From an uncultured Gammaproteobacteria bacterium (lineage in GTDB: Bacteria > Patescibacteriota > Patescibacteriia > SBBC01 > CAIJZX01), in the NCBI GenBank assembly GCA_964397195.1, contig CAYNGY010000002.1, positions 37,239-101,238 on the forward strand: DNA of 64,000 nucleotides. Reading direction: 5' to 3'. The translations under genes and the position numbers were made by a program. The first letter of the stretch is position 1; each line of letters opens with the position of its first letter. Of the stretch, positions 1-17,184 are shown one piece after another. The notes under the pieces are model-generated. The model ran no database searches and was not told the origin of the DNA. It was given only the letters and a program-made list of their open reading frames with translations.

Positions 1-2
1 CC

Positions 3-395
3 CTCCGTAGCCTCTATGCGTCACTGAAAGAAGCGGGCGCGGCGCGCATTATCGCCGTCTTCGGTGCGGCGGGTGGAGGACGCGACCACTGGAAGCGACC
101 GGAGCTCGGGAAAATTGCGAGTGAATTCGCGGCCAGTATTATTCTCACGAGTGAAGACCCGTTTGACGAGAGCCCGGCCGCGATTGCTGATGATATTCGG
201 CAGGGGATAGACAACGGCGTGCCGACGGAGGTGATCGTTGATCGAAAAGCGGCGATTGCGAGCGCCATTCAGATGGCTCAGCCGGGGGACGTGATTGCGC
301 TGACGGGGATGGGCTCGGAGACGACGATGAATGTCGCTGGTGGTCAGAAGGTTGCGTGGAGTGATCGGGCGATTGTTGAATCGCTGGTGGCATGA
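3..395 (+). CDS. Mur ligase family protein, C-terminal domain only (5' truncated by window edge). MurE/MurF-like.
   Basis: Frame-0 ORF running off the left edge and ending at TGA 393-395. The translation ends with ...GDVIALTGMGSETTMNVAGGQKVAWSDRAIVESLVA, typical of the Mur ligase C-terminal domain. Its stop overlaps the def start (ATGA). Confidence 0.55.
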   Translation, partial: LRSLYASLKEAGAARIIAVFGAAGGGRDHWKRPELGKIASEFAASIILTSEDPFDESPAAIADDIRQGIDNGVPTEVIVDRKAAIASAIQMAQPGDVIALTGMGSETTMNVAGGQKVAWSDRAIVESLVA

Positions 396-925
396 GCATC
401 CGACCCGTTTCTCAAATTGGTGACAAGGTTATTCGGGCCAAGGCGAAGCCGGTGGCGGTGCGTGCCGCGCGAACAAAGCGGATCGTCGCCGACTTAGTTT
501 CAACCATGCGGAAGCATAATCTCGTCGGCATGGCCGCGCCACAAATTGGCGAGGGTGCGCGGATCTTTGTCACGGAGCTCCGGAAAACGAAGTTTCGAAA
601 GTCACTGCGCGATATTGATCCATTGCGCGTGTTTATTAATCCGCGCATTATCCGTCGTTCTCAGGCGATGTCAGTGGGAATGGAAGGGTGTGGGAGTGTG
701 GCTGAAGCGGGACTTTTTGGGCCCGTGCGACGTCATGCCTCTGTCACCATCGTGGCTACTGATACTGATGGCAGGCTATTCCGTTTCGTTGCCACTGGTT
801 TCCTCGCTCGCGTCATTCAACACGAATACGATCATTTGAACGGCGTGGTTATCCTTGATCGGTTTACGGATACGCGGCAGGTGCTTGATATGGCTTCCTA
901 CATTCGAAAACCGAAGACGCGATGA
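392..925 (+). CDS. def: peptide deformylase
   Basis: 177-aa ORF with the three deformylase motifs: GMAAPQIG (GxGxAAxQ), EGCGSV (EGCLS-like) and QHEYDHLNG (HExxH metal site). Confidence 0.9.
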   Translation: MSIRPVSQIGDKVIRAKAKPVAVRAARTKRIVADLVSTMRKHNLVGMAAPQIGEGARIFVTELRKTKFRKSLRDIDPLRVFINPRIIRRSQAMSVGMEGCGSVAEAGLFGPVRRHASVTIVATDTDGRLFRFVATGFLARVIQHEYDHLNGVVILDRFTDTRQVLDMASYIRKPKTR

Positions 926-1485
926 AGCGTATGCGCTTGGGCTGGAAAAAACTCCGGGAACGATCCATCCGGATTAACAAATGGCGGTCGATGAAGGAGA
1001 AACGTTTCCGGCTGCCGAATGGTCGGAAGATTGATTTTTATGTTCATGATGGGCAGGACATTGTTTGTACATTGGTGATCGATACGGATGGGCGCGTGGT
1101 GATCGCGAAGCAATTTCGACCCGGTCCGGAAAAAATTATGACTGAAATGCCGGGTGGTGGAGTGGATGAAGGGGAGACGCCGCGCGCGGCTGCGATTCGT
1201 GAGGTGCGCGAAGAAACCGGATATGTGGGGAAGGCGGTGAATCTGGGAACGACGCCGGAAGATGGTTGGTCCGAAAAAAAGCGCCATCATTTTTTGATGA
1301 CCGAGTCTCGTCGGGTGGGGGACTCCACGCCTGATGACAACGAGGCAATCGAGGTGGAAACCGTCTCAATGAAAAAGTTTCTGAAGTTGGTGCATCGCGG
1401 ACATCTTTCGGATTTTGAAACGGCAATTCGGGGGTTGATGTACCTTAGTGTGCTCACCGGGCTACCGAAAAAGAAGGGGAAATAG
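922..1485 (+). CDS. NUDIX hydrolase (ADP-ribose pyrophosphatase-like)
   Basis: Nudix box GGGVDEGETPRAAAIREVREETGY (GX5EX7REUXEEXGU). ATGA overlap with the def stop. Confidence 0.85.
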   Translation: MKRMRLGWKKLRERSIRINKWRSMKEKRFRLPNGRKIDFYVHDGQDIVCTLVIDTDGRVVIAKQFRPGPEKIMTEMPGGGVDEGETPRAAAIREVREETGYVGKAVNLGTTPEDGWSEKKRHHFLMTESRRVGDSTPDDNEAIEVETVSMKKFLKLVHRGHLSDFETAIRGLMYLSVLTGLPKKKGK

Positions 1486-1756
1486 GCTTTTCTCTAATCT
1501 TAGCCAATATTCCGGGACGAGACCGATCTCGGCCCAACCTTTTATTACAGCAAGTGAAACTGAAGAATCGCTGAATTACTCGTTTTTGTGGCTAATATTA
1601 GCCATCTTTTATTGGCCGGTGGTAAATGAATATTTGACTGTGGAGTAGACCGGGACAAGATTGGGGACAAACGAGTGGAAAAGTAGGGCTCGGGCGGGTG
1701 ATTAACCCCATATTTGCGCTAATATTAAGGGATTTGACAATAATTGGGGTTTAGTC

Positions 1757-1785
1757 TTGACCTAGTAAGGCAAAGATGGTACTCT
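1757..1785 (+). promoter_or_regulatory. putative sigma-70 promoter for rpoB-rpoC (TTGACC-N17-TACTCT, TGg extended -10)
   Basis: -35 TTGACC at 1757-1762, 17-nt spacer, -10 TACTCT at 1780-1785 preceded by TGg. It sits about 140 nt upstream of the rpoB ATG. The leader contains hairpin GCCAAct-cctt-TTGGC near 1810-1827. Confidence 0.4.
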
Positions 1786-1928
1786 CGGCAGGCGTATTTT
1801 TACGAAACTAGCCAACTCCTTTTGGCCATACTCTCCGCTCTAAAGCGGATTCAAAACGCCTTCGGGCGTTAGTTCCATCAGCCTCCCTCCCCGTTGAACC
1901 CGACGGAAGGGGTAATTCGTGTCCTCGC

Positions 1929-4900
1929 ATGCCGACTACCGCCTTGCGGACGCAGACGCGTCGCTACTTCACGGATATCGTCGACGCTGCGCCACTCCCG
2001 GATCTCATTGAGATTCAGAAGCGCAGTTACGACTGGTTTTTCCGGGAAGGTCTAAAAGAACTGTTCGAGGAGATCTCTCCGGTCAAGGACTTCATCGGTC
2101 GGGACCTGGAACTCTCATTTCTCGACTATTACCTGGACGAACCGAAGTTCGATGAGGTGACAGCCAAGAATAAGAACGTGACCTACGAAGCGGCATTACG
2201 GGTTCAAGTCCGCTTGGTCAACAAGAAAACTGGCGAAATTAAGGAACAAGAAATTTATCTTGGCGATTTTCCGTTGATGACCGATCGCGGAACGTTCATC
2301 ATTAACGGGATTGAACGCGTCGTCGTTAGCCAGTTGATTCGCTCAGCTGGTGTTTTTTTCACGGTCGAGAATATTCGGGGCCGCCGCTACTACGGGGCGA
2401 AGATTATTCCGAACCGTGGCGCCTGGCTTGAAATTGAAACCGATCCAAACGGTGTTCTGACCGTTAAAATTGATCGCAAACGGAAAGTGCCGATCTCGTC
2501 ATTCCTCCGCGCTTTCGGCTACGGTAGCGACCAGGAAATTTTCGATCTCTTTAAAGACAGCGATACCGGCCCGATTAAATATATCGAAGCGACGGTGGCG
2601 AAAGATGCGGCTAAGGACGAGGCCGAAGGGTTAAAAGAAGTCTACAAGCGTATCCGCCCGGGCGACCTGGCCACGATTGATAACGCTCGTGACTTGATCC
2701 ATAAAATGTTTTTCTCGTTTGATCGCTACGACTTCGGTCGCGTCGGTCGATACAAACTGAATATTCGGTTCGGTTTCGATCAGCCGAATACGAAAGAAAC
2801 CCGCGTCCTCCAGCGAGCGGACGTTGTTTCCATTGTCAAAGAAGTCATCCGGCTCAACAACACTCAGTCGCCGGAAGATGATATCGATCACCTCGGGAAC
2901 CGTCGCGTCCGGGCAATCGGCGAACTCGTCCAGAATAAGTTCCGTGTCGGTCTGGCCCGAATGGAGCGCATCATCAAGGATCGCATGTCGACCCTCGATA
3001 TTAATACCCTGACCCCGAACCAGCTGATTAACGCGCGGCCGGTCATTGGCGCCATCAAGGAGTTCTTTATGAGCTCCCAGTTGTCGCAATTCATGGACCA
3101 GAACAATCCGTTGGCGGAGCTTGAGCACAAACGCCGACTATCAGCGATGGGCCCGGGCGGCTTGTCACGTGAGCGCGCCGGATTTGAAGTTCGTGACGTG
3201 CACCGCACGCACTACGGCCGCATCTGTCCGATTGCGACCCCAGAAGGACCGAACATCGGTCTGGTCGGTCACTTAGCCTCGTATGCTCGGGTCAATGATT
3301 ACGGATTTATTGAAACGCCGTTCCGCAAGGTCGTTCATGATGTTCCGAATGATGGCCAGTCCGCCATTGGCGAAATTGCGCGTGAAGATCTCGGCGGTGT
3401 CGTCAAAGAAGGCGAGACCATCTCAGCCGCCCACGCCAAGCAGTTAAAGACCCTCGAACTCAAAACTATTGCGGTCAAACCGCGAGCGACGAAAGAAGTC
3501 GTCTACCTCGATGCCTTCACCGAAGAGCGTCACTGTACGTCGGCGGCGACGGTGCCAGTTGATGAAAAAGGATACTTCCTCGTCGAAACCGTTGAAGGTC
3601 GGCGTCATGGTGAGCCGACTATCTTCCCGGTCGTAGAAATTGATTTCCTCGATGTATCCGCGAAACAGATTGTTTCGATCGCGACGGCGCTCATTCCGTT
3701 CCTCGAACATGACGACGCGGTTCGCGCGTTGATGGGCACAAACATGCAACGCCAAGCGGTCTGCTGCATTAAGCCACAAGCGCCGATTGTCGGGACGGGT
3801 GTTGAAGAGCGCGCAGCGAAAGACTCCGGACAGGTCGTCCTCGCCCAGAAGGCGGGAACGGTCATGCGGTCGCAAGCAAGCGAAATTCAGATTCAGGAAG
3901 AGGACGGTAACATTCGTATCTACCCGTTGCGAAACTTCTTCCGTTCAAACGCCTCAACCTCGATTAACCAAAAAGCCGCGGTGGTGCCGGGACAGAAAGT
4001 CGCGCAAGGCGACCTCTTGGCCGACGGTGCAGCTACGGAAAACGGCGAACTCGCCCTTGGTCAGAACTTGGTGGTGGCCTTCATTGCTTGGGAGGGCGGT
4101 AACTACGAAGACGCCATCCTGATTTCGGAGCGCGTCGTCCAAGACGATCGTTACACCTCCATCCACATTGAAGATTACGTCATCGATGTCCGCGATACGA
4201 AGCTTGGTGCGGAAGTCGTGACCCGTGACATCCCGAATATTTCCGAGGACAAACTGAAAGACCTTGATGAAGAGGGCGTCGTCCGAATCGGTGCCGAAGT
4301 TTCTTCCGGTGATATCCTCGTCGGGAAAATCACCCCGAAAGGTGAAACAGAGTTGTCGGCGGAAGAAAAGTTACTCCGCGCGATCTTCGGTGAAAAAGCC
4401 AAGGACGTGAAAGACTCGTCGCTGTACCTCGAGCACGGTGAGCACGGCAAGGTTGTTGATATTAAAGTCTTCTCCCGCGAGAAGGGCGATAAATTGCCGG
4501 CCGGCGTGATTAAGCAGATTCAGGTCTCGGTTGCCCAGCTCCGCAAAATCCAAGTTGGTGACAAGATGGCCGGACGTCACGGGAACAAAGGCGTGATCTC
4601 GCGAATCGTGGCGGTTGAAGATATGCCGTATCTCGAAGATGGAACACCGGTTGATATTGTCTTGAACCCGCTCGGTATTGCGTCACGTATGAACCTTGGG
4701 CAGGTGCTCGAAGTTCATCTCGGCATTGCCGCCAAGCGCCTTGGGTTCAAAGTCGCAACACCAGTCCTCGACGGGGTGGCGGAAAAGACGATTAAAGAAC
4801 TACTCGTCGAATCCGGCTTACCGGAAACCGGGAAGATGACGGTTATTAATGGCATGAGCGGCAAGCCGTTTGATATGCCTGTGACCGTTGGGGTGATGTA

Positions 4901-5345
4901 TATCTTGAAACTCAACCACTTGGTGGAAGACAAGATTCACCAGCGCTCGATTGGTCCATACTCACTCGTGACCCAGCAGCCGCTCGGCGGAAAAGCCCAG
5001 TTTGGTGGCCAACGGTTTGGTGAAATGGAAGTTTGGGCCCTTGAAGCGTACGGTGCGGCTCATATTCTCCAGGAAGTTCTGACCATTAAGTCTGATGATG
5101 TCTCCGGACGATCAAAGGCGTACGAGTCAGTCATTAAGGGCGAGCCAATTCGCCGCCTGAATGTTCCGGAATCATTCAACGTTCTCGTTCGTGAATTAAA
5201 GGGATTAGGATTGGAAGTTGAACTGATCGGGGCCGAAGTGGCGCCGGAAGAAGACGATCGTCCACCACGTCCAACGTCTCTCCCCGAGTCGCTGCCTGTC
5301 GAACCGGCGACGGAATCTGATCAAAAGATGATCGCGGAAGCCTAA
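1929..5345 (+). CDS. rpoB: DNA-directed RNA polymerase subunit beta
   Basis: 1138-aa ORF with unmistakable RpoB sequence throughout (e.g. GDKMAGRHGNKGV, NLGQVLEVHLG, GGQRFGEMEVWALEAYGAA). Confidence 0.97.
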   Translation: MPTTALRTQTRRYFTDIVDAAPLPDLIEIQKRSYDWFFREGLKELFEEISPVKDFIGRDLELSFLDYYLDEPKFDEVTAKNKNVTYEAALRVQVRLVNKKTGEIKEQEIYLGDFPLMTDRGTFIINGIERVVVSQLIRSAGVFFTVENIRGRRYYGAKIIPNRGAWLEIETDPNGVLTVKIDRKRKVPISSFLRAFGYGSDQEIFDLFKDSDTGPIKYIEATVAKDAAKDEAEGLKEVYKRIRPGDLATIDNARDLIHKMFFSFDRYDFGRVGRYKLNIRFGFDQPNTKETRVLQRADVVSIVKEVIRLNNTQSPEDDIDHLGNRRVRAIGELVQNKFRVGLARMERIIKDRMSTLDINTLTPNQLINARPVIGAIKEFFMSSQLSQFMDQNNPLAELEHKRRLSAMGPGGLSRERAGFEVRDVHRTHYGRICPIATPEGPNIGLVGHLASYARVNDYGFIETPFRKVVHDVPNDGQSAIGEIAREDLGGVVKEGETISAAHAKQLKTLELKTIAVKPRATKEVVYLDAFTEERHCTSAATVPVDEKGYFLVETVEGRRHGEPTIFPVVEIDFLDVSAKQIVSIATALIPFLEHDDAVRALMGTNMQRQAVCCIKPQAPIVGTGVEERAAKDSGQVVLAQKAGTVMRSQASEIQIQEEDGNIRIYPLRNFFRSNASTSINQKAAVVPGQKVAQGDLLADGAATENGELALGQNLVVAFIAWEGGNYEDAILISERVVQDDRYTSIHIEDYVIDVRDTKLGAEVVTRDIPNISEDKLKDLDEEGVVRIGAEVSSGDILVGKITPKGETELSAEEKLLRAIFGEKAKDVKDSSLYLEHGEHGKVVDIKVFSREKGDKLPAGVIKQIQVSVAQLRKIQVGDKMAGRHGNKGVISRIVAVEDMPYLEDGTPVDIVLNPLGIASRMNLGQVLEVHLGIAAKRLGFKVATPVLDGVAEKTIKELLVESGLPETGKMTVINGMSGKPFDMPVTVGVMYILKLNHLVEDKIHQRSIGPYSLVTQQPLGGKAQFGGQRFGEMEVWALEAYGAAHILQEVLTIKSDDVSGRSKAYESVIKGEPIRRLNVPESFNVLVRELKGLGLEVELIGAEVAPEEDDRPPRPTSLPESLPVEPATESDQKMIAEA

Positions 5346-5349
5346 TCGT

Positions 5350-8300
5350 ATGCCATTCGAAGAACTCCACGCCGTCAATTTCAAAGCGATTAAACTCCGC
5401 GTTGCCTCCCCGGAAGATATTCACCGCTGGTCGTATGGTGAGGTGACCAAACCGGAAACTATTAACTACCGCACGCAAAAACCGGAAAAATCCGGGCTCT
5501 TTGCCGAAGAAATCTTCGGACCGTCAAAGGACTGGGAATGTTTCTGTGGGAAGTACAAGCGCATCCGTTACAAGGGGATTATCTGTGATAAGTGCGGTGT
5601 CGAAGTCACTCGCTCGGTTGTTCGCCGTGAACGCATGGGCCACATCGACCTCTCGGCGCCGGTCTCACATATCTGGTTCCTGCGTGGCGTTCCGTCCAAG
5701 ATCGGCTTAATGCTCGATCTCGGGGTGCAAGATCTTGAAAAAGTCATCTACTTTGCCAATTTCATTATCACCCGAGTTGATGATGGCCTGCGCGAAGAAA
5801 CTCTGCACCAGCTGAATTCAGAATACGAAGCGAAGAAGAAGCAGATTGAGAATGAAGCGCATCAGAAATCGAACACCCTGAAGCAACAGGTTGGTTCAGC
5901 GACAGACGAGCAGAAGACCGCGATTGAACAGGAACTGACGAATGTCGCGACGATTAAGCAGGAACAGCTCGATCGTCTCGATCAAGCGGTCGAAAGCGCG
6001 CGAGGCGAATTGAAGAGCCTAGCGCCGATGCAGATTCTGACTGAGCAGGCGTATCAAGACCTATCCCTCAAGTACGGCCATGTCTTTGAAGCCTCGATTG
6101 GTGCGGAAGCGGTCCGACATCTCCTCGAAAAAATCGATCTCGACACGGTGATTGCCGATCTGGAAGAAGAGATTACCGAAGCGACTGAGGCGAAACAACG
6201 CCGTCTCATTCGCCGTCTGCGCTTGGCCAAGAACCTCAAGCAGAACAATATCCGACCGGAATGGATGATTCTAACCGCGGTGCCGATTATCCCGCCGGAC
6301 TTGCGACCGATGGTCCAACTCGACGGTGGGCGATTTGCGACGTCGGATTTGAATGATCTCTACCGCCGGGTGATCAACCGCAATAATCGCTTAAAGCGGT
6401 TACTCGAATTGAATGCGCCGGAAGTGATTACGCGCAACGAAAAGCGCATGCTCCAAGAGGCGGTTGACGCCTTGATCGACAACGGTGCGCGTCACGGAAA
6501 AACCGTGACGGCTTCGACCGGTCAGAAACGTATGCTGCGTTCGATCGCGGATATGTTGAAAGGGAAGCAGGGTCGGTTCCGGCAAAACTTGCTTGGGAAG
6601 CGCGTCGACTACTCCGGACGTTCCGTAATCGTCATTGGTCCATACTTGAAGCTCGACCAATGTGGTTTACCGAAACGGATGGCTCTCGAGCTTTTCCGAC
6701 CGTTCGTCATCTCACACTTGATTAAGCGAGAACTCGTCCACAACGTCCGCTCAGCCGGCCGATATATCGAAGCCGGTCATGCCGAAGTTTGGGATATTCT
6801 TGAAGAGGTGACGAAGACCGCGACGGTCTTCCTCAACCGCGCTCCAACCCTGCACCGCCTCGGTATCCAGTCGTTCCGACCGATCCTGATTGAAGGAAAG
6901 GCGATTCAGGTTCACCCGTTGGTCTGTACGGCGTTCAACGCAGACTTCGACGGTGACCAAATGGCCGTCCACGTCCCGTTGACGGAACAGGCGAAGTGGG
7001 AATCGGAGAACTTGATGATGTCGACGAAGAACCTGTTGAAACCGGCGACTGGTCAGCCGATCGTGACCCCGAACATGGACATTGTTCTCGGCTGTTACTA
7101 CATGACCCAAATTGGACCCGGCAAGCCGTTCGTCTTTACTGATCCGGAAGAAGCGGTCTTAGCCTATGAAGCCGGACACATCGGCATTCAAACCGCGGTC
7201 AAAGTCCGCATCGGTGATGAAACGCATGAAACGACCGTTGGGCGCGTGCTCTTCAATCGGATTGTGCCGACTGAATTCGGGTATTTGAACGAGAGCATGG
7301 ACAAGAAAGGGCTGGCGGCACTGGTGTCCCGAACGCTGACGGAGCTCGGGTCGGATCGGACCGTTTCCTTCCTCGACGATTTGAAGAACTTCGGGTTCAA
7401 GTACGTCACCCAGTCCGGAATTTCATGGGGGAGCAGTGACCTTGAGGTCCCGGCCATTAAACCAGCGGTTCTGAAAGCGGCAGAAGAAAAGGTCCTCGAG
7501 ATCCAAGCGGCCTACGATAGCGGTCTCTTAACCGATCTGGAACGACGCGCTCGAGTTGTGGCCGTCTGGTCGACCGCAAAAGATGAAATTCAATCAGCAT
7601 CGAAGGAATTGCTCGACCCGCTCGGTCCGGTCTACATGATGATTAACTCCGGCGCTCGTGGTTCATGGGCCCAAACGACCCAGATGATGGGTATGAAGGG
7701 GCTCGTGATTAACCCGGCCGGTCAGGTCATTGAATTGCCCGTCAAGGCAAGCTTCAAAGAAGGATTGAACGTTCTCGAATACTTCGTTTCGACTCACGGT
7801 ACCCGCAAAGGTCTGACTGACACCGCCTTGAAGACCGCGTCAGCCGGGTACCTAACTCGTCGTCTCGTTGATGTTTCGCAGGATATTGTGGTCAACATTG
7901 AAGATTGTGGCGACGATCAAGGCTTCGTCATCACCAAAGACGAGAGCGAGGCCATGGGCGTTGAGATCGCGGATCGCATCGTCGGTCGGACACTCGTCAA
8001 AGACCTCGTTGATCAGAAGGGCAAAGTGCTCTTCACGGCCGGCACGCTCGTCACACCACGTGATGGAAAGGCGATTCGTGCGGCGGATGTCGTCGAAGCA
8101 ACTATTCGTTCCCTCCTGACCTGCCAAGCACCACGCGGCGTCTGCCAGAAGTGCTACGGGTATGATCTCGGGAAAAACGAGCCGGTTCGTCCGGGGACTG
8201 CGGTCGGTATTATCGCCGCGCAATCAATCGGTGAGCCGGGTACCCAGTTGACCATGAAGACGTTCCACATGGGTGGCGCGGCGTCAGCGGCCGACATTAC

Positions 8301-9228
8301 CCAAGGTCTCCCACGTGTTGAAGAGCTCTTCGAAGCGCGTCCGGTGAAAATGCCGGCGATCCTCTCCGATGTAGCCGGTCGGGTGAAAGTTGAGTATGCC
8401 GCCGACCACAAAGTCATTACCATCGAATACCAAGCTTCAGGCCATGATGACTACGATTTCCCGGCTAAGCGCGGGAAGAAGAAGGTTGAGGTCGTTGTAA
8501 CCGACGGCGCAACCGTGAAAGAAGGCGAAGTCCTCTTCACCTTCGGTGAAAAGAAGACAACCGCTGAACGTCCGGGCCTCGTCAAAGTGACCGACGATAC
8601 GGTGACTGTTCACTACGATCATGCCTCGACTCGCAGCATCCCGGTTCCGCCGAACATTCAACTTCGAGTGAAAGATGGCGACCTCGTAGCGCCGGGGACG
8701 GTCCTGACGGAGGGCAGCGTCAACTTGCAGGAACTGTTCGTGCTCCGTGGCCGTGAAGCGGTCCAGAAGTACGTCATTAAAGAAATCCAGTTCATCTATT
8801 CCTCGCAAGGCCAATATCTGAACGACAAGCACATCGAAATCATTGTGCGCCAGATGTTCTCCCGCGCCTATGTCCAATCGGTCGGCAATAGTCAGCTGAT
8901 TGCTGGTGAAGTCGTCGATCGGATTATGGCCGAGAAACTCGGTCGTGACTTGGTGGCGAAGAAGAAGACTGCGCCAGAGATTACACCACTCCTCCTCGGG
9001 GTAACGAAGTCGTCACTGGCGACGGAATCATGGCTCTCGGCAGCTTCGTTCCAAGAAACCGCCCGAGTCTTAATTGATGCGGCGGTGACTGGACGGGTTG
9101 ACTCGCTCCGCGGATTAAAGGAAAACGTGATTATCGGTAAGCTCATTCCGGCCGGAACCGGATTCGAGTCTCGCCAACAAGATACCGTCGTGACGCCGGC
9201 TGACGTCGTCAGCGTCCCAGCGGACTAA
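5350..9228 (+). CDS. rpoC: DNA-directed RNA polymerase subunit beta'
   Basis: 1292-aa ORF. N-terminal zinc motif [23 protein letters not shown], catalytic [12 protein letters not shown], and C-terminal trigger loop/clamp regions. It starts 5 nt after the rpoB stop. Confidence 0.97.
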
Positions 9229-9245
9229 CACCGTTTTCGTTCCAA

Positions 9246-9279
9246 CGCCCCCGCACCATCTGGTGCGGGGGCGTTTGGT
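9246..9279 (+). terminator. rho-independent terminator after rpoC
   Basis: Perfect 12-bp stem CGCCCCCGCACC / GGTGCGGGGGCG (9246-9257 / 9262-9273) with loop ATCT, followed by TTTGG. Confidence 0.7.
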
Positions 9280-9354
9280 CTGTAACCAGGTTCGACGTTC
9301 ATATTGAATGGAATGATGGCTAGCCAGATTTTGGCTGAAATTGGGGAAAAACAC

Positions 9355-9383
9355 TTGTCGAAGGGCGAAAAAAATGGTATACT
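9355..9383 (+). promoter_or_regulatory. putative promoter of ftsK (TTGTCG-N17-TATACT, TGg extended -10), near-leaderless
   Basis: -35 TTGTCG at 9355-9360, 17-nt spacer, -10 TATACT at 9378-9383 preceded by aTGg. The in-frame ATG at 9395 lies only 11 nt downstream and has no SD. Confidence 0.5.
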
Positions 9384-9394
9384 CATTATCACCT

Positions 9395-11680
9395 ATGGCC
9401 GAAAAGCAACCTCGTCGCCGCGCTTCGGGCGCAGCGAATCCTGAACCGGAACATCCACGACGCCAACCAGCGCCACGCGAGGTGGTCCGCCCAGAAACGC
9501 GTCATGCGGTCCTGGTGGTAATTGTGCTGACCTTTGCGGCCGTTTTGTTGCTGTCGGTTTTTGGTTGGGCTGATACGTTCGGTGATCGGATTAGTGATGC
9601 GTTGGGGACTTTAGTTGGTTGGCAGCGATTCTTAGTGCCGTTCTATGGTTTGTGGCTCGGGATCGTTTTGCTCTTCCCCGAACGGTGGCACATTACCGGC
9701 CCGCGCTGGCTTGGATTCACCCTAACCTTATTGGGCTCGCTCGGGTTGATGCACATGGCGGTGCCGCTAGCCGTCGACGGACAACGTGCTATCGAGGGTG
9801 TTGGCGGCGGGTACATCGGATTTTTGGTCAGTCATGTTCCGCGATCCTCTTTGGGGCCGTGGGCCGGGGGTCTAGTCCTGGCGGCGATGCTGATTATCGG
9901 ATTGTTGATTTTGTTCAATGCCACCCTGCAGTCGCTCTATCGGCGCAGTAATTTGTTTAACGGGTTGACCATGTTGATTCGTCGTTTCCGCTGGCAACGC
10001 CGACTAGCGACGATTCAATCAGAAACAGTTCCGGCGCCGGAATTTCAGGCGACGGAAGTCCCGATCGCCCAATCCGAAACTGACGAGCCGAATGCCGGTG
10101 AACCAGCGGAGGCGGTCGACGAGCCGGACATGGTGCCGTTACCAGTTAAGAAAGAGCGTCGTCCAAAACGTCAGATCACGATCCCGATGGACCTCCTTGA
10201 TTTGGCTGACAGTAAGCCGACCAGCGGGAATATCGAACTGAATAAAGATCGGATTAAAAAGACGCTCGAGAACTTCGGCATCTCCGTCGAGATGGACGAG
10301 ATTCATGTCGGTCCGACGGTCACGCAGTATACACTCAAACCGGCGGATGGTGTGCGTCTGGCGCAGATTGCCTCACTGAAGAATGATATGGCGCTGGCCT
10401 TGGCGGCTCATCCGATTCGGATTGAAGCGCCTATCCCCGGGAAGTCGCTCGTCGGGATTGAAGTGCCGAACCAGTCAATTGCCCTCGTGACCTTGCGCGA
10501 CATCCTCGATACGGAAGAATTCCGTCGCCGGAAATCTGATCTCTCGTTCTCACTCGGGAAAGATGTTTCTGGTCAGCCGTGGGTGGCGAATTTGGAACTG
10601 ATGCCACACTTGCTGATCGCCGGTGCCACCGGGTCCGGGAAATCCGTTCAGATTAACGGCCTGATTATTTCGTTGCTGTATAGTAATTCGCCGGATGACC
10701 TCAAGCTGATCCTGGTTGACCCGAAGCGTGTCGAGTTATCACTCTACAATGACATTCCGCACCTGCTGACACCGGTGATTACTGAGACCACTAAAACGAT
10801 TAATGCCTTACGCTGGGTGGTGTCAGAAATGGATCGACGTTATCAAGTCCTCCAGAACGCACGGAAGCGCAACATTGCCGCCTATCGTCAAGATGTGAGC
10901 GATGATATGCCGTACATCTGTGTGGTCATTGATGAATTGGCGGACCTGATGTCGGTAGCCGCCAATGATGTTGAAGGGATGATTGTCCGTCTGGCCCAAA
11001 TGGCTCGGGCGGTCGGTATTCATTTGATCTTAGCGACGCAGCGGCCATCCGTTGATGTCATCACCGGATTGATTAAGGCCAACATTACCGCGCGCGTCGC
11101 CTTTAGTGTGGCCTCACAGATTGATTCGCGAACGATTCTCGATATGGCTGGCGCCGAATCGCTCCTGGGGAAAGGGGACATGCTCTTTATTTCGGCGGAA
11201 CTTTCGAAACCGAAACGGTTGCAAGGCGCGTATGTGTCCGAAGCGGAAGTCGAGCGGGTGACGAGCTACCTGAAGGCGCGGGGCAAACCTGATTACATGG
11301 CTGAAGTGACCGAAAAGCAACCGGGTGCGCCGGGACAGGGGATTGATGATCTCGGTGAAGACGAATTACTTCCGGATGCAAAAGAGGTGATTGTCCAGTC
11401 GGGTCGGGCATCAACGACGTTACTCCAGCGCCGTCTGCGCGTTGGGTATGCTCGGGCGGCACGGATTATGGATCTCTTAGAGAAAGAAGGCTTCATTGGG
11501 CCGGGTGAAGGGGCGAAGCCACGCGAAATCTACGGCCGTTCGACCGAGCACCCACCGTTTGCGCAAGACCCGCGCGATTTGCCGACGGATACCGGCGACG
11601 ATGTGCCGCTAGCGCCGGAAGAAGAAATTGAGGACGAGGAACCAGAAGATCCGGCGACCACCAACTCGAACCCCGCATGA
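9395..11680 (+). CDS. ftsK: DNA translocase FtsK/SpoIIIE
   Basis: N-terminal TM helices, proline/acidic linker, Walker A LIAGATGSGKSV, and C-terminal winged-helix gamma domain (TTLLQRRLRVGYARAARIMDLLEKEGFIGP). The start is chosen at ATG 9395, in frame with the longer track ORF 9341, because of the promoter just upstream. The start is uncertain. Confidence 0.85.
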   Translation: MAEKQPRRRASGAANPEPEHPRRQPAPREVVRPETRHAVLVVIVLTFAAVLLLSVFGWADTFGDRISDALGTLVGWQRFLVPFYGLWLGIVLLFPERWHITGPRWLGFTLTLLGSLGLMHMAVPLAVDGQRAIEGVGGGYIGFLVSHVPRSSLGPWAGGLVLAAMLIIGLLILFNATLQSLYRRSNLFNGLTMLIRRFRWQRRLATIQSETVPAPEFQATEVPIAQSETDEPNAGEPAEAVDEPDMVPLPVKKERRPKRQITIPMDLLDLADSKPTSGNIELNKDRIKKTLENFGISVEMDEIHVGPTVTQYTLKPADGVRLAQIASLKNDMALALAAHPIRIEAPIPGKSLVGIEVPNQSIALVTLRDILDTEEFRRRKSDLSFSLGKDVSGQPWVANLELMPHLLIAGATGSGKSVQINGLIISLLYSNSPDDLKLILVDPKRVELSLYNDIPHLLTPVITETTKTINALRWVVSEMDRRYQVLQNARKRNIAAYRQDVSDDMPYICVVIDELADLMSVAANDVEGMIVRLAQMARAVGIHLILATQRPSVDVITGLIKANITARVAFSVASQIDSRTILDMAGAESLLGKGDMLFISAELSKPKRLQGAYVSEAEVERVTSYLKARGKPDYMAEVTEKQPGAPGQGIDDLGEDELLPDAKEVIVQSGRASTTLLQRRLRVGYARAARIMDLLEKEGFIGPGEGAKPREIYGRSTEHPPFAQDPRDLPTDTGDDVPLAPEEEIEDEEPEDPATTNSNPA

Positions 11681-12348
11681 TGTTCACCAAGCGTCCGCTC
11701 GCGGGCCAGGAAACGCTCGGTGATCGGTTGCGGCAATTGCGTGAAGAGCGACGGGCGACCCTCGAAGAGGCGTCGAAGGCGGTGATTGTGCCGGCCAAAT
11801 ATCTTGATGCGCTTGAACGAAGCGCGTATACCGAACTGCCGGGCCTCGTCTACGCCCGGAACTTTGTGCGGCAATACGCGACGTGGTTGAGCTTGCCGGT
11901 GGAAACGGCGATGGAAAAGTTTGAGCAAGAATTTCAGGTTGTGCACGGTCGGCGTGTCGAATCACCGCGACTTGTGGCGCGAGCTAAAACCGAGTTTCCG
12001 TGGTATCTGCGTCATGGACGCTTCCTGATCGCTTCGGGGATTATCTTGATCGTCCTCACCTATCTTGTGATTCAGGCGGTACGCTTATTGCGTCCGCCGT
12101 TTATGGAGGTACTTCAGCCATCGACCGATATTTCCATTTCGGAAAACTCGATCGTGGTCAGCGGCCGTACTCAGCCCGGCGTTGAGGTCCGGATTAACAA
12201 CCAACAGACGGATGTCGCGGCGGATGGGACGTTCGTCGAAACGGTTGACCTGCAAACCGGGTTGAATACCCTAAAGATAACCGGACAGCGAAAAATTAGT
12301 AAGCCGGCCGTCGTGGAACGACGGGTGTTGGTGGAGGCGAAGGAATAA
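11677..12348 (+). CDS. RodZ-like protein (N-terminal XRE-type HTH, one TM helix, C-terminal beta domain)
   Basis: HTH segment LGDRLRQLREERRATLEEASKAVIVPAKYLDALERSAY resembles the RodZ N-terminus. A single TM helix (FLIASGIILIVLTYLVIQAV) follows. ATGA overlap with the ftsK stop. Confidence 0.5.
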   Translation: MMFTKRPLAGQETLGDRLRQLREERRATLEEASKAVIVPAKYLDALERSAYTELPGLVYARNFVRQYATWLSLPVETAMEKFEQEFQVVHGRRVESPRLVARAKTEFPWYLRHGRFLIASGIILIVLTYLVIQAVRLLRPPFMEVLQPSTDISISENSIVVSGRTQPGVEVRINNQQTDVAADGTFVETVDLQTGLNTLKITGQRKISKPAVVERRVLVEAKE

Positions 12349-12559
12349 CCACGCGGGGGAAGTGGCTGGACAGCCAACCGTTTACTGTATCATGTGAAAC
12401 TGAAAAAACGCTGAAAAATCCCGTTTCTTCGCTACGTTGAGCGGTTTTTTTGTAAAGCAAAAACCCCAGACCAGATGCCACCATCGCTTGCGCGACGATG
12501 GAATTGGTCCAGGGTATTGCCTGTATCTTTTACGATCCCCGGGGGGAGGGACGGTGCGG

Positions 12560-13078
12560 TTACTTGGTTCTGCTCTGGGCGAGGGGCCCAGGAAGGACGA
12601 CGTTCTCGAAGACGATGGATCGGCCGATGACCTTGCCGACAGGGGCACCTGGTCGACGGCAGTAGACGAGATCGTAGGAGTCGTCTGCGTGTCCGTTGAT
12701 GAAGATGCCGAAGCGGTCGCCGGCGTAGTTCATGTACGGCCTGGCCATCGGGTAGAGGACTTCATCGCGAATCGGCGTCTCGTCCATCAGGCGGACGTTC
12801 GGCCAGCGCGCGGCGTACTTCTTCAGGAAGTAGTCGTCGCCCGGCGAGCCGTAGGACGGCACGGTGCCGTCGATGAACGGGGTGATGGTCGCCGGCAGGG
12901 TGCCGTGCTTGAGCTGGTACTCGGTGATCTCCAGTGCGAGCTCGGTGACCGCCAGATTCTGCTGGCTTACCTCGAACTGGTGACGCAGGTTGGCGACCTC
13001 GATGTTCTGACTGCGGAACTGGGTTCCGATCCAGATCAGACCGAGGACCGCGAGAATGTAGAGAGCGACGATCTTCAT
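12560..13078 (-). CDS. hypothetical signal-anchored or secreted protein (172 aa)
   Basis: N-terminal hydrophobic segment MKIVALYILAVLGLIWIG. SD GGAGGA lies 3-4 nt upstream of the ATG. The overlapping plus-strand ORF 12437-13135 is D/E/R/G-rich antisense noise. Confidence 0.6.
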   Translation of the reverse strand: MKIVALYILAVLGLIWIGTQFRSQNIEVANLRHQFEVSQQNLAVTELALEITEYQLKHGTLPATITPFIDGTVPSYGSPGDDYFLKKYAARWPNVRLMDETPIRDEVLYPMARPYMNYAGDRFGIFINGHADDSYDLVYCRRPGAPVGKVIGRSIVFENVVLPGPLAQSRTK

Positions 13079-13179
13079 GATTCCTCCGTACGGGCGGAAG
13101 TGGTCAGGCTTGGTGCGTCTAGCGCGTCGGGGTGACGCGGTAGATCACCGGGGCGATGATGCCGAGGGTGGAGGCGCGC

Positions 13180-13365
13180 CTAGTCCTTCATGAAGTTGTA
13201 CTCCAGGTCGGACGGCGGTTCACCGTACTTCTTCTTCATCGCGGCGATATGCGTTTCACAGGCCATCGCACCGCCAGCGATCCCGACCGCCCGACCTTCG
13301 CCATTCCAGCGCGGGTCGAGCTTGCTGGTGACCCACCAGCTGCCTTCGCGAATTCCGAAGTCCAT
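13180..13365 (-). CDS. hypothetical small protein (61 aa)
   Basis: ORF preceded by SD AGGAGGA 8 nt upstream. High GC3 like its neighbours. Confidence 0.45.
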   Translation of the reverse strand: MDFGIREGSWWVTSKLDPRWNGEGRAVGIAGGAMACETHIAAMKKKYGEPPSDLEYNFMKD

Positions 13366-13393
13366 GTCTGTGTCCTCCTGATGGCGGTCGATT

Positions 13394-14095
13394 CTACTTC
13401 TGGCGGTAGACGAACCAGACCTCGTCCTTCCCGTTGATGGTGAAGACCGCCATCGTGACGTTGTCGATCTGGGTGCCGTGCTCGATGAGCCAGTGGTCCA
13501 GGTCGCCGGCGTTCTGGAAGACCTTCGCTCTGTAGCCTGGCTCCTCGCCCGGCTTGGGTGGAGGCTGGTAGCCCTGTTCCAGGCAAGGCACGATCACGGT
13601 TCGGGCCAGCGTCGCCGGGTCATCGGACTTGGAATTCGTCCGGATGGTAGCCGGTGGCGCGTAGCGGACGCGGTTCACGGGCACGTCGCCGCCGAACTGG
13701 TACTCCTGCAGGCGCTCCCATGATTCTGCGACCGCGCTCAGGGCCTTCCAGGTCGACGTGTAGCGAGTGCCGATGTTGGAAGACTCCTTGGCGTTCAGAC
13801 CCTTCCAGACGACAGCCAGACACGGGTTGGTGGTGTCACTGCCAGCGGCCGGAAACACGAACAGGTTGTAGCGCAGGTCTCTGGTCCCCAGGGCACCGCG
13901 GTAAGGAGCGGGCTGGAGGGTAGCATACCCGTACAGGCGGAAGGCCCGCCGGTGACCGAGCGCGTTGACGACGGTGACGTTGAAGCCCTCGATTCGGGAC
14001 TTGTAGTACCCGTCGATGGCGCCCTGGCTCGGCGTGGTGATGACACCGAGTGCCATGACCACGATCAGCAGGGTGATGCCGATGCTTGATTTCAT
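13394..14095 (-). CDS. hypothetical secreted protein (233 aa) with N-terminal signal peptide
   Basis: Signal-peptide-like N-terminus MKSSIGITLLIVVMALGVITTPSQGA. SD context GGAGGAATCATGAA is identical to that of the 12560-13078 gene. Its start overlaps the stop of the upstream receiver gene (ATGA). Confidence 0.65.
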   Translation of the reverse strand: MKSSIGITLLIVVMALGVITTPSQGAIDGYYKSRIEGFNVTVVNALGHRRAFRLYGYATLQPAPYRGALGTRDLRYNLFVFPAAGSDTTNPCLAVVWKGLNAKESSNIGTRYTSTWKALSAVAESWERLQEYQFGGDVPVNRVRYAPPATIRTNSKSDDPATLARTVIVPCLEQGYQPPPKPGEEPGYRAKVFQNAGDLDHWLIEHGTQIDNVTMAVFTINGKDEVWFVYRQK

Positions 14096-14481
14096 GATTC
14101 CTCCGGGTTGAGGAGCTCCGTCACCTGCGCGATCAGTTCGCGCGGGCTGAAGGGCTTCGCCATGAAGCGGTGGGCGCCGGCCGCGCAGTACGATCGTCCG
14201 TCAACGTCCGAAGGCTCGGGCGTGGTCAGGACGATAACCTTGATATGCCGGAACGCGGCCCAGGCGACCGTTGCGGTGAGTAGCTCGGGTCCGTTGCCGC
14301 GGTTGAGACGCGGGTCGATGATGATGACGTCGGGCGACGTGCGCTTCAGCTCGATCAGCGGGTTACTTGACCGGCTGATGATGACGACTTCGAAGCCTTG
14401 GTGGCGACTCAGTCGGTAGTCGAGCAGATCCGCATGCTTCGGATCATCGTCGATGACGGTGATACGTCGTTTGTTAGTCAT
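14092..14481 (-). CDS. stand-alone response-regulator receiver (CheY-like REC domain)
   Basis: Starting at MTNKRRITVIDDD (ATG at 14481, SD GGAGGG) it has all REC hallmarks: the DDD acid pocket, phospho-acceptor Asp in VIIIDPRL, Thr in VIVLTT and Lys in AKPF. There is no output domain. The track ORF extends to 14571, but the upstream extension lacks an SD. Confidence 0.75.
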   Translation of the reverse strand: MTNKRRITVIDDDPKHADLLDYRLSRHQGFEVVIISRSSNPLIELKRTSPDVIIIDPRLNRGNGPELLTATVAWAAFRHIKVIVLTTPEPSDVDGRSYCAAGAHRFMAKPFSPRELIAQVTELLNPEES

Positions 14482-14911
14482 GCGCCCTCCGTGGCACGTA
14501 GGTGGTAGGAAAGACGAGGCGGCGTCCGGTGTAGTAGAGCAGTGCGACCATGGCGAGCGCCATGATGACACCGAAGAACTGATCGGGTGCCCAACTGCTT
14601 TGCCACTGGTTCCAGGTGCGGATGTTCACGAGCATGACCATCGCGAACCAGAAACAGCCGGTGTGAATGCCGTAGTCGCGTCGGTACATGATGCGAATCA
14701 TCAGCACCGACGTGAGGACGGCGAGAGTCCACGCGCCGTAGATCATGAAGATGCTCGGCGCGCCTTCCACCAGCTCATTGTAGCCCTCGGCGCCGTCGGG
14801 GAACCATTCCCAGAACTGGTTTTGCCAGTTCCAGAGAGCGGCGCCGATGACGGCGAGAGTGAAGGCGGCGAAAAGACGAGCGATGCCGAACGCATACTGC
14901 TTGAGAGTCAC
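14474..14911 (-). CDS. hypothetical integral membrane protein (about 4 TM, 145 aa), GTG start
   Basis: Four hydrophobic helices, W/F-rich. SD GGAGGAG 4 nt upstream of the GTG start. Its 3' end overlaps the receiver gene start by 8 nt, so they are co-transcribed. Confidence 0.6.
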   Translation of the reverse strand: MTLKQYAFGIARLFAAFTLAVIGAALWNWQNQFWEWFPDGAEGYNELVEGAPSIFMIYGAWTLAVLTSVLMIRIMYRRDYGIHTGCFWFAMVMLVNIRTWNQWQSSWAPDQFFGVIMALAMVALLYYTGRRLVFPTTYVPRRAHD

Positions 14912-15094
14912 GGGACTCCTCCGTTTTTTATGACCGGGCGAGGGAGATCACCGGTCGTTGTCAATGGTCGACGCGACCCTCGCTTGAACTCACCAGTCTA
15001 ATGAGCAGAAAAGACTGATGAGTCCAAGTGAAGATCCGGCGGCGGACTCGCGTGTTACTGCGAGTCCGCCGTCAGAGTGCGGGTTGAATATCTT

Positions 15095-15211
15095 CTACCA
15101 CCGACTAGGGTCTTTGACCTTCGTCCAGTCGATGTTCTTCGGACGCGTTCGCCAGACGCCGATAGCGTAGATGGCGAGCATAGCCACCGCGAGAATGTCC
15201 GACCACTTCAT
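15095..15211 (-). CDS. possible small membrane protein (38 aa: MKWSDILAVAMLAIYAIGVWRTRPKNIDWTKVKDPSRW)
   Basis: Short ORF not in the supplied track. Found by eye, it has one hydrophobic helix and a GGAAAGG SD-like sequence about 9 nt upstream. A strong 11-bp hairpin lies downstream at 15041-15070. Confidence 0.3.
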   Translation of the reverse strand: MKWSDILAVAMLAIYAIGVWRTRPKNIDWTKVKDPSRW

Positions 15212-15245
15212 GGGTTGGCCTTTCCGCGGCAAGGGGGGGGTGGTG

Positions 15246-15401
15246 TTACGCGGCCGCTTGGCCGAGTTCCTTCTCGAGGGTAGCGATCCGATAGCGCAGT
15301 TTCTCGCGCTCCCGTTCGCCGCCTTCGCCTTCCCGATCGTTCTCGTTCAACTCCGCGAGGAGTCGGTCGAGATCGGCCTGGATCTCTGTGCGCGTGCGCA
15401 T
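15246..15401 (-). CDS. hypothetical small charged coiled-coil protein (51 aa)
   Basis: Internal ATG of track ORF 15246-15674 has strong SD GAGGAG 6 nt upstream. The product is MRTRTEIQADLDRLLAELNENDREGEGGEREREKLRYRIATLEKELGQAAA. It starts 12 nt after the stop of the upstream membrane-protein gene. Confidence 0.4.
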   Translation of the reverse strand: MRTRTEIQADLDRLLAELNENDREGEGGEREREKLRYRIATLEKELGQAAA

Positions 15402-15412
15402 GTCGTTCTCCT

Positions 15413-15808
15413 CTAGAGTTGCGGCCAGCGGAAGAAACAGTTCAGGAGCAACAGGATGCCGATGATCTTGCCGATCAGCGTGATGACGTAGCGCGCGATC
15501 TCGGTTTCGTGGCCGAGGTCGTACTCGAACGTCCGATGATCGCCCATTTCCTTGTTCAGGGCGGTCGCGATGCGCTTCAGCGACGAGATGGTGTTGCCGC
15601 AGTGCGTGGCCATACTCAGACCGAGCACTGCCGCCACGACGCCGGCCATCCAGCCGAGCGTGTAGTTGTGCCACACGTGGTTGGTGACCCAGGCGACGGG
15701 AACCATCAGGATCGCGATCATGAAGAAGATCGTGAAGATGATGAGTTCGAGGCGGAAGACTTCGTACTGCTTGAGCAGTGAGCGGATGTAGATCTCATCC
15801 TGATCCAT
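15413..15808 (-). CDS. hypothetical membrane protein (about 131 aa from MDQDEIYIRSLL...)
   Basis: Start chosen at the ATG with SD GGAG 6 nt upstream. Two to three TM helices (LELIIFTIFFMIAILMVPVAWV; GWMAGVVAAVLGLSMA; ITLIGKIIGILLLL). Confidence 0.55.
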   Translation of the reverse strand: MDQDEIYIRSLLKQYEVFRLELIIFTIFFMIAILMVPVAWVTNHVWHNYTLGWMAGVVAAVLGLSMATHCGNTISSLKRIATALNKEMGDHRTFEYDLGHETEIARYVITLIGKIIGILLLLNCFFRWPQL

Positions 15809-15893
15809 TTGCACTCCTCGGCGGCTTGAGCCGCGAATGGGTAGTGGCGTGGACAGCGAGTCCGTTTCGAAGATATTCGTGAGAGTTAAGGTG

Positions 15894-15979
15894 CGACTCT
15901 CGTTTGAAGGTTTCAATGGTTGAAACTCTCAAACGAGAGTCCCAGTACCGGCTGTCCTTGTCGGACTTCCGGTACTGGG
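15894..15979 (-). repeat. tandem perfect inverted repeats (nested 13-bp + 7-bp hairpin, then an 11-bp hairpin) between two co-oriented island genes
   Basis: First hairpin: GACTCTCGTTTGA (15894-15906) pairs with TCAAACGAGAGTC (15929-15941), enclosing the inner stem GTTTCAA/TTGAAAC. Second hairpin: CCCAGTACCGG (15941-15951) pairs with CCGGTACTGGG (15969-15979). Neither is followed by a U-tract. Confidence 0.7.
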
Positions 15980-15995
15980 ATGATCTCATCTACAT

Positions 15996-16451
15996 CTAGA
16001 TGAACTCGTACTTCGGGCCGTTGGCGAAGATGGCGCGCGTGTACCAGCGACGACCCTGTTGGTCGAAGTACTGCAGGTCGACACGCTCGACGCCCTCGGA
16101 ACGGTCCGGCAGGTAGCTGAAGTTCAGCTTACCTCGGCAGGCCTTGCCGCCGGTGTCCTGGTGGCACTCGATACGCTGGCCGCTGTCGGGATCGTTGAAC
16201 TCGAGGTAGTCCTTCGAGAACATGCTCATGACCTCGAAGATGCTCCGCGGGAGCTGACCGTTGTTGTTGACTCGGAAGTTCTCGACCTTGTCAGCCATCC
16301 GGTTCATGGTGTTGACCAGGGACTCGTGCCGATGCCCGGCCTGGCTCCGTACGAGCTGCGTCTGAGTCTCCTTGAGCCGACGCAGAAGGTACGTGCTGTA
16401 CATGGCGGCGGCAACACCGAAGATAGCGAGGATGAACACGGAAATGCTCAT
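15996..16451 (-). CDS. hypothetical N-terminally anchored protein (about 151 aa)
   Basis: Start at the second ATG (MSISVFILAIFGVAAAMYSTYLL) with SD GGGAGA. One TM helix followed by a hydrophilic domain. Confidence 0.55.
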   Translation of the reverse strand: MSISVFILAIFGVAAAMYSTYLLRRLKETQTQLVRSQAGHRHESLVNTMNRMADKVENFRVNNNGQLPRSIFEVMSMFSKDYLEFNDPDSGQRIECHQDTGGKACRGKLNFSYLPDRSEGVERVDLQYFDQQGRRWYTRAIFANGPKYEFI

Positions 16452-16662
16452 GAAGTCTCCCATGCTTGACCGGATCTATCCGGGGCGGGTTGGAGTGGCG
16501 AAGACGACGAGTTTATTGTAGATGAGAGTAGAAAGAACAAACTCTATCTCTCGCATAACGTGACCACGTGGTGATCAGGTTGTGCGAGAGGCCCGGAACC
16601 ACTCCTTCCGATCTTGTCGGGAGTTTGGTTCTGGGCCGAACGAAGGTGCTCTCGCGGAATGC

Positions 16663-16911
16663 CTAGTAGGTGCGCGTCTCGGCGCGATTGGTCTCGCGGT
16701 GGAGCGAGACGGCCAGCCAGAGTACGCCGGTTCCGATCACGGTGACGAACAGCGCGGCCGGGAAGAGGCGGGGGTCGGCACTGTAGTCCTTGATGGCCGA
16801 GTAGACGCCGTAGAGGCCGAGCGCCGCGATCGCCGTCCCGAAAACGGACAGGACCGCGGACAGCATGTGACGACCGAACTTCTGGTCAGGCGTGAGGCGG
16901 AGCGTCGACAT
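16663..16911 (-). CDS. hypothetical small membrane protein (82 aa, 2 TM)
   Basis: Two hydrophobic helices. SD AGGTAGGA upstream. The overlapping plus-strand ORF 16582-17064 is D/E/R/G-rich antisense noise. Confidence 0.5.
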   Translation of the reverse strand: MSTLRLTPDQKFGRHMLSAVLSVFGTAIAALGLYGVYSAIKDYSADPRLFPAALFVTVIGTGVLWLAVSLHRETNRAETRTY

Positions 16912-17136
16912 GGATTCCTACCTTTCGGTGAGGGGCGGGTGATACGAAAAAACGCGTTGCGGCGACAAATCCCGGAGCAGGTTTATCACAACAACGCGTT
17001 TTTCACATATCGTGTCCGACGTCTGCTCACGTGGCACGAAGCGGGTATATTTAAAGAACAGTAGATTATACGCTTGGCGGCGAAAAATGTCAAGAGTAAG
17101 GGCGTGGCGACGGATCGTATTTGGCTAATTATAGCC

Positions 17137-17159
17137 AAAAAAACCCAGCCGAAGCTGGG
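17137..17159 (-). terminator. rho-independent terminator for the RNase III-like gene (minus strand)
   Basis: On the minus strand: CCCAGC-ttcg-GCTGGG followed by TTTTTTT (plus-strand 17137-17159 reads AAAAAAACCCAGCcgaaGCTGGG). Confidence 0.7.
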
Positions 17160-17184
17160 GGTAGGGTGGGGTTCTTGGGCCCTG

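Follow-up and report, generated by a model that had tools for sequence, protein, structure and literature searches.

Tandem-binding regulators and architectural proteins recognize direct repeats by contacting successive units on one face of the DNA helix. The pho box of PhoB, the operator of a winged-helix response regulator, contains 7-bp repeats at 11-bp periodicity. Protein-binding sites also occur between the hairpins of BIME/RIP elements, which are repeats found at gene 3' ends, and small RNAs usually consist of an unstructured conserved stretch followed by a variable hairpin. Patescibacteria have small genomes with little intergenic DNA, and, as far as we are aware, their non-coding regulatory sequence is almost entirely uncharacterized. 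Here, we analyzed an intergenic element in a 64-kb stretch of Patescibacteria DNA, hereafter called the window, and compared it with these systems. The window belongs to a Patescibacteria (CPR) metagenome-assembled genome (MAG); among named entries, the closest relatives of its NUDIX, RodZ-like, and UDG proteins are encoded by MAGs labeled 'Patescibacteria group bacterium'.

A 22-nt motif occurs on the plus strand of the window as GTGAAACTGAAGAATCGCTGAA at 1554–1575 and as GTGAAACTGAAAAAACGCTGAA at 12394–12415. The two sequences are identical at 20 of 22 positions, as an initial annotation of this DNA had described, and the motif is far beyond chance: at three or fewer mismatches it was found only at these two sites in the 64-kb window, and none of 100 dinucleotide shuffles contained a match. 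The 22-mer proved to be part of a larger unit of approximately 45 nt, GCCAACC-N16-GAAACTGAA-N5-GCTGAA. The similarity between the two sites begins at GCC(C)AACC, 22 nt 5' of the 22-mer with equal spacing in both, and 34 of 42 positions are identical. It runs on through CGTTT, which had been placed within about 10 nt of the motif and starts 5 nt after it at the first site and 6 nt after it at the second, and continues into a downstream hairpin, giving approximately 85 nt of continuous homology in all.

The core of the first copy (S1) spans 1532–1575 (+) and reads GCCCAACC-N14-GTGAAACTGAA-GAATC-GCTGAA; it lies between a NUDIX gene (stop codon at 1485) and rpoB (start at 1929) and scored E=5.5e-13 in nhmmer with a five-copy profile that itself includes S1. 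The core of the second copy (S2) spans 12372–12415 (+), reads AGCCAACC-N14-GTGAAACTGAA-AAAAC-GCTGAA, and lies between a rodZ-like gene (stop codon at 12348) and a convergent gene at 12560–13078 (−). A profile search of the window yielded a diverged third copy (S3) at 61054–61096 (+), AGCAACC-N14-ACGAAACTGAA-TTTTT-GCTGAA, whose register GCAACC-N16-GAAACTGAA-N5-GCTGAA is that of S1 and S2. This copy follows a UDG-family gene at 60392–60958, for which PF03167 was listed, and precedes a convergent gene at 61226–61696 (−). S3 agrees at 23 of the 34 positions common to S1 and S2, and one of 30 simulated windows scored as high. Judged on its sequence alone, S3 would be a marginal member of the family; it gains support because it is intergenic, on the same strand, and similar to a copy in the metagenome contig L009 (31 of 42 positions identical by manual count). 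Within the window, the arrangement CTGAA-N6-CTGAA is restricted to these three sites; GAAACTGAA occurs five times and CGCTGAA 14 times, about 1.8-fold the expectation. An intergenic repeat search of the window revealed no further family.

S1, S2, and S3 are all intergenic plus-strand sequences that lie 3' of plus-strand genes. GC skew is positive throughout the window, which indicates that the plus strand is the leading strand. The 22-mer stands 68 nt after the stop codon of the NUDIX gene and 45 nt after that of the RodZ-like gene (HTH_25), in line with the distance of about 45–70 nt given before. The order of genes around the first two copies is pdf, NUDIX, S1, rpoB, rpoC, ftsK, the RodZ-like gene, and S2. 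According to codon-position GC, the true gene after S2 is the one on the minus strand (GC3 0.86), and the gene after S3 is likewise on the minus strand; neither copy has a downstream gene on either strand. Since S2 and S3 lie between convergent genes, they cannot be the promoter or operator of a downstream plus-strand gene. A link to a paralogous neighbor was rejected, as the translations of the minus-strand genes beside S2 and S3 were not similar by eye. S1 is located approximately 350 nt upstream of rpoB, ahead of TTGAC-type promoters.

These neighborhoods have several further features. The rpoB leader (1634–1928) contains three TTGAC-type promoter-like sites with −35 hexamers at about 1634, 1746, and 1769, and a stretch CCTCCCTCCCC that could pair with the ribosome-binding region GGAAGGGG about 15 nt downstream, forming a possible translational control hairpin. 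The interval 12560–17982, between the rodZ-like gene and recA, is a 60% GC block of small minus-strand genes of unknown function (GC3 0.73–0.86), which also encodes a response regulator consisting of a receiver domain only and a protein with weak similarity to RNase III. In the relative L122, the interval from the rodZ-like gene to recA is about 1.9 kb with different small ORFs, which indicates that this is a variable region with S2 at its left edge. In the region 59960–60958, the UDG-family gene has an unusually low GC3 (0.40, compared with about 0.6 for other genes) and is separated from an upstream tRNA-Ser by about 340 nt, and a 72%-identical homolog in another Patescibacteria MAG has a different gene context. 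This gene was possibly acquired recently, and S3 directly follows it.

We found further copies outside the window, in two environmental contigs. The nearest RodZ relative (L120, 66% amino-acid identity) carries one that is syntenic with S2 (nhmmer E=6.6e-4); it is flanked by the rodZ-like gene of L120 and by a convergent gene for a small membrane protein. The 20-base pattern CAACC-N16-GAAACTGAA-N5-GCTGAA had one match in the genome-contig collection, a chance match in Ligilactobacillus, and two in metagenome contigs, L008 and L009. The former appears to be coding sequence, has a score typical of chance matches, and was used as a chance control. The latter agrees with the family at 25 of 31 pattern-free positions, against 14–15 for the two chance matches, and is as near to S2 as S1 is. 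It was accepted as a real copy, the membership of both S3 and L009 being argued statistically. The L009 copy lies between divergent genes, a STAS-like gene (−), read from its translation, and a pilin-like gene (+). The placement after gene ends, to which the initial annotation had drawn attention, applies to the three window copies but not to L009.

In approximately 75 kb of non-redundant sequence from more distant relatives, among them relatives at about 50–60% protein identity, the element was absent. It is missing from the NUDIX relatives L002, L005, and L006, the RodZ relatives L121 and L122, and the UDG relative L123–L125, the last not syntenic; the NUDIX–rpoB spacer of L005, the nearest NUDIX relative, has no counterpart of S1. 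In viral contigs, the 15-base core gave 110 single matches, judged to be about chance level, none of which showed the full pattern. BLAST searches of phages and plasmids gave nothing meaningful, and a literature search on the element found nothing relevant. In L120, the segment 1035–1155 has six CTGAA/TTCAG pentamers in 120 nt, compared with 2.2 per kb as the background in the window. Approximately 105 nt upstream of the main copy, this segment contains another core-like stretch, CCAACTGAAAGTTTTTGCTAAGG, which is degenerate, and it also has a CCCTGAAacaagTTCAGGG hairpin.

The five known copies (S1, S2, S3, L120, and L009) all keep AA(A/C)CTGAA-N5-GCTGAA together with an upstream CCAA(C/A)C. 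In every one, the two CTGAA units are exactly 11 bp apart; of the 6 nt between them, the sixth is an invariant G, and the five before it vary freely. The AAC-containing units are spaced 22 bp apart. A direct repeat at 10–11 bp periodicity, as in operators of the OmpR/PhoB type, is thus present in five of five copies as CTGAA-N6-CTGAA. The likeness to PhoB-type operators extends to two identical direct units 11 bp apart with a mostly non-conserved spacer, to additional units at one- or two-turn spacing, and to the lack of need for any fold. In contrast, the unit sequence is unrelated to that of the pho box, and for two of the three window copies there is no gene downstream.

The core of S2 is identical to that of L120 at 31 of 45 positions (69%). 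For the adjacent rodZ-like gene, identity between the window and L120 is 41% at codon position 3, 72% at position 1, and 82% at position 2, and no alignment is possible for the DNA directly 5' of the element. Because the core is conserved at 69% against 41% at codon position 3, the S2 core is under purifying selection. The earlier expectation of conservation in relatives therefore held for the syntenic L120 copy, but not for relatives at about 50–60% protein identity. The CTGAA-containing part of the motif is kept, whereas GTGAAAC of S1 and S2 reads ACCAACC in the L120 ortholog and is not the constrained part.

These data bear on the idea that the copies are non-functional remnants, in which a segment of about 85 bp, perhaps derived from a small mobile element, was duplicated and is decaying. 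The uninterrupted S1/S2 homology, hairpin included, would fit such an origin, as would the lack of S1 in the matching intergenic region of L005 and the fact that S2 and S3 border gene blocks that are variable or have an unusual composition. However, the S2 core and its L120 ortholog are about as similar as first codon positions are, even though the flanking non-coding DNA is unalignable, and conservation is concentrated in the units common to all five copies. As for traits of MITE or REP sequences, no conserved terminal repeats were seen, the three window copies share one orientation, inverted terminal repeats were not evident, and the window yielded no transposase or recombinase. There is also no consistent target duplication, S1 alone being flanked by a direct repeat of CTTTTATT. 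We regard the remnant explanation as quite unlikely for the family, although a duplicated segment could explain the origin of S1.

A second proposal of the initial annotation was that GAAAC and GTTT(C/T) pair to form a stem that presents the 22-mer in a loop, as structured RNA or DNA. GAAAC and GTTT(T/C) are indeed present in both S1 and S2. They are absent as a stem from S3, L120, and L009, and the minimum-free-energy fold of S1 does not use the stem. The z-scores were −0.8 and −0.9. RNAalifold on the five copies gave −0.1 kcal/mol for the plus strand and −0.06 for the minus strand, that is, no consensus structure, and neither covariation nor conserved secondary structure was seen on either strand. 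Single-sequence RNA folds had z values of −0.3 to −0.9, those of S1, S2, and L120 being no better than shuffles; the same was true of single-stranded DNA folds of S1, S2, and L120 on both strands (z −0.75 to +1.18). At gathering thresholds, Rfam returned only two tRNAs in the whole window, and E-value scans around S1, S2, L120, and L009 gave chance-level matches only. The stem-loop is accordingly very improbable. What survives of the suggestion of a protein-recognized element is a conserved, linear, foldless sequence, which fits protein recognition; the structured-loop form is unsupported.

Hairpins and palindromes do occur next to the copies. After the S1 core, a perfect 14-bp palindrome, GGCTAATATTAGCC, lies 14 nt downstream (1590–1603) and is followed by CTTTTATT; it is AT-rich and was flagged as terminator-like. 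After S2, a weak hairpin or degenerate palindrome, CGCTacgttgAGCG, with a stem of 4–5 bp leads into a run of seven T (12430–12452, +). Terminator-like sites were called at 1588–1605 and 12429–12444, both downstream of the conserved motif. The motif itself is not such a hairpin, which agrees with the earlier view that it is not a plain terminator. The 3' half of S3 is embedded in a 54-nt imperfect palindrome at 61081–61134 (single-stranded DNA fold z = −5.0 and −5.2), in which CTGAA..TTTT pairs with AAAA..TTCAG around a GC hairpin at 61097–61118 and which is followed by no T-run on either strand. L120 has neither a stable stem nor a T-run downstream. An intrinsic terminator was thus rejected as an explanation for the element, given the downstream position of the called hairpins, the lack of a T-run in S3, and the lack of both stem and T-run in L120. 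What is kept 3' of the cores of S1, S2, and L120 is a palindromic GCTAAT.TTAG rather than a stable hairpin with a T-run; GGCTAATATTAGCC and the degenerate palindromes that follow the S2 and L120 cores are homologs.

The GGCTAATATTAGCC palindrome has relatives of its own, with five matches at three or fewer mismatches against 1.2 expected. Members are at 1590–1603, 1716–1730, 1492–1505, and 17123–17136 in the window, and at 1708–1721 in L005. Copies lie just upstream of the rpoB promoter in both the window and L005, and another is near a perfect TTGACA-17-TATAAT promoter at 17093–17065 (−). This family looks like a candidate operator of a dimeric regulator, and the hairpins after S1, S2, and L120 belong to it.

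The association with gene ends and hairpins invites comparison with enterobacterial BIME/RIP-type elements. Like these, the element is found after gene ends, including those of convergent genes, and has a conserved center flanked by hairpins or palindromes. It differs in that its hairpins are not conserved in sequence or position, its copy number seems low, its copies have one orientation, and it has no conserved IHF consensus.

The same arrangement also raises the possibility that the element acts as transcribed RNA, either as an unstructured 3'-UTR segment or as the body of a small RNA of about 50 nt that ends at the next hairpin. It could then be read by an RNA-binding protein or serve as a base-pairing seed. 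The window copies lie on the coding strand 46–95 nt past a plus-strand stop codon, with no canonical terminator between the stop codon and any of the three. Terminator-like hairpins follow S1 and S2, and the outer pair of the hairpin switches from G-C in S1 (GGCTAATATTAGCC) to C-G in S2 (CGCTACGTTGAGCG). A conserved unstructured stretch followed by a terminator-like hairpin in S1 and S2 resembles the seed and intrinsic terminator of small RNAs, and an unstructured conserved stretch with a variable hairpin is the usual layout of this class. On the other hand, no promoter is recognizable upstream, no Rfam family matches, the S3 hairpin has no T-run, L120 has no stable hairpin and no T-run, L009 also lacks a terminator, and the five copies show no covariation or consensus structure. 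Moreover, no gene reads into the L009 copy. An RNA motif is therefore nearly as good an explanation as a DNA site for the window copies but fails for L009, and overall we consider it possible but doubtful.

Adjacent to S2, a separate non-coding feature was observed. The 40-nt block at 12518–12557 is identical to L120 1218–1257 at 39 of 40 positions. It lies directly past the stop codon of the minus-strand gene 12560–13078, with a hairpin at 12464–12514 alongside; the neighboring 144-aa protein of L120 had no match in the window (tblastn, E ≤ 1e-3). When folded as the minus strand, the block forms a small hairpin with a CCCCCC loop, which is anti-Shine-Dalgarno-like, then a single-stranded stretch, and then a long terminator stem in which five pairs are compensatory. 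The block is a candidate small RNA, either independent or derived from a 3' UTR, and is arguably more striking than the 22-mer motif.

Promoter readings can be drawn up for either strand, but no such reading has the required spacings in every copy. On the minus strand, the two TTCAG repeats would take the place of a −35 element, with T(R)(Y)(R)NT 10 bp downstream as the −10. The hexamers TGTAAT, TACAGT, TATGAT, TATGCT, and TGTAGT indeed fall in one column, T is invariant at both ends, and TGn precedes the hexamer in S1, S2, and L120, the three weaker ones; in L009, such a promoter would fire toward the STAS-like gene about 80 nt away. However, in the window such a promoter could yield only antisense RNA against the 3' ends of the NUDIX, rodZ-like, and UDG genes. 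In addition, two copies have G at hexamer position 2, and a −35 is missing. Recognizable promoters here are canonical (TTGAC-N17/18-TATNAT), and a consensus scan of 1–20000 for sigma-70 promoters (−35 and −10 at 16–18 bp) listed no site over S1 or S2, where only −10-like hexamers were seen by eye.

On the plus strand, an ECF-like promoter (AAC-N16-CGAA) could be drawn, and an ECF sigma factor is encoded in the window. For the standard arrangement of AAC and CGT 16–17 nt apart, the distance from GAAAC to CGTTT (20 nt in S1 and 21 nt in S2) is too long; the variant CCAACC-N16-CGAA holds in S3 and L009 only, two of the five copies, and no copy is upstream of the ECF gene. A sigma-B/F-like promoter on the minus strand (GTTT-N17-GGTTGG) was likewise discarded for its poor −10 match. 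Taken over both strands, we judged a promoter unlikely. The ECF-type sigma factor ORF, recognized by its translation, lies in the region 26968–32765 and is directly followed by a 1702-aa alpha-2-macroglobulin-like protein; an ATG at 27089, in a frame different from the sigma ORF, is preceded by a strong ribosome-binding site.

Other known classes were also considered. Like integron attC sites, the element lies just past gene ends, and an exact RYYYAAC is present in S1 and an exact GTTRRRY at the far end of S2 and L120, the ends being about 60–70 nt apart. An attC site was nevertheless rejected, because the single-stranded DNA folds of S1, S2, and L120 do not pair these ends and there is neither a cassette array nor an integrase. 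The 16-bp parS palindrome TGTTNCACGTGAAACA matches S2 at 13 of 16 positions and S1 at 10 of 16, but S3 and L120 have no left half, and L120 also has no GTGAAAC. Uptake sequences (DUS/USS) would be expected about once per kb, including inside genes, against three elements in 64 kb, and a solitary CRISPR repeat was dismissed in view of the missing array. S1 and S2 can be read as a leader peptide (GTG AAA CTG AA(G/A) AA(T/A) CGC TGA, MKLK(N/K)R*), but a ribosome-binding site is missing, and S3 lacks a start codon and has an in-frame stop two codons upstream. None of the sigma-54, IHF, CodY, cre, and LexA boxes fits all copies.

The best explanation we can offer, held tentatively, is that the element is a putative double-stranded DNA docking site for a sequence-specific protein. 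This protein would contact successive units on one face of the helix, namely CCAA(C/A)C, then 22 bp on (G/C)AA(A/C)C with CTGAA directly attached, and lastly another CTGAA at a distance of exactly 11 bp from the previous one. The units are spaced by roughly one and two helical turns within a discrete, unstructured element of about 45 bp with sharp boundaries. In L009, the docking site would be placed between two divergent genes, and in S1 it would be upstream of the rpoB promoters. As the contexts vary between gene 3' ends and divergent genes, a DNA site can work everywhere, whereas a 3'-UTR element cannot. We infer from these properties that the ligand is a protein and that DNA rather than RNA is bound, and the effect of binding is assigned by the same reasoning.

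Two observations weigh against the docking site. S2 and S3, lying between convergent genes, have no obvious promoter to regulate, and the window copies are all on the plus strand, after plus-strand genes and beside hairpins, which suits transcribed RNA as well. A search for a candidate binding protein found none, the nearby response regulator (14092–14571) having a receiver domain only. Our confidence is limited by this result, by the absence of a nearby promoter at two window copies, and by the small number of copies, only five, in the family. As a bolder option, which we consider distinctly unlikely, the element might be recognized by an undescribed, Patescibacteria-specific system that labels where transcription units end, in one orientation relative to replication, for example through a protein roadblock that enforces termination or blocks fork or transcript read-through between convergent genes, or it might be the founding member of a new small-RNA family.

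In summary, the element is a real, selected, lineage-restricted, and foldless cis-element and represents a new instance of a familiar kind. With five copies only, it adds one more conserved cis-motif, and its significance is modest on the present evidence. It recurs at several loci, one of them upstream of rpoBC, and fits no known RNA family or consensus binding site. The element therefore provides a concrete handle toward a lineage-specific regulator.
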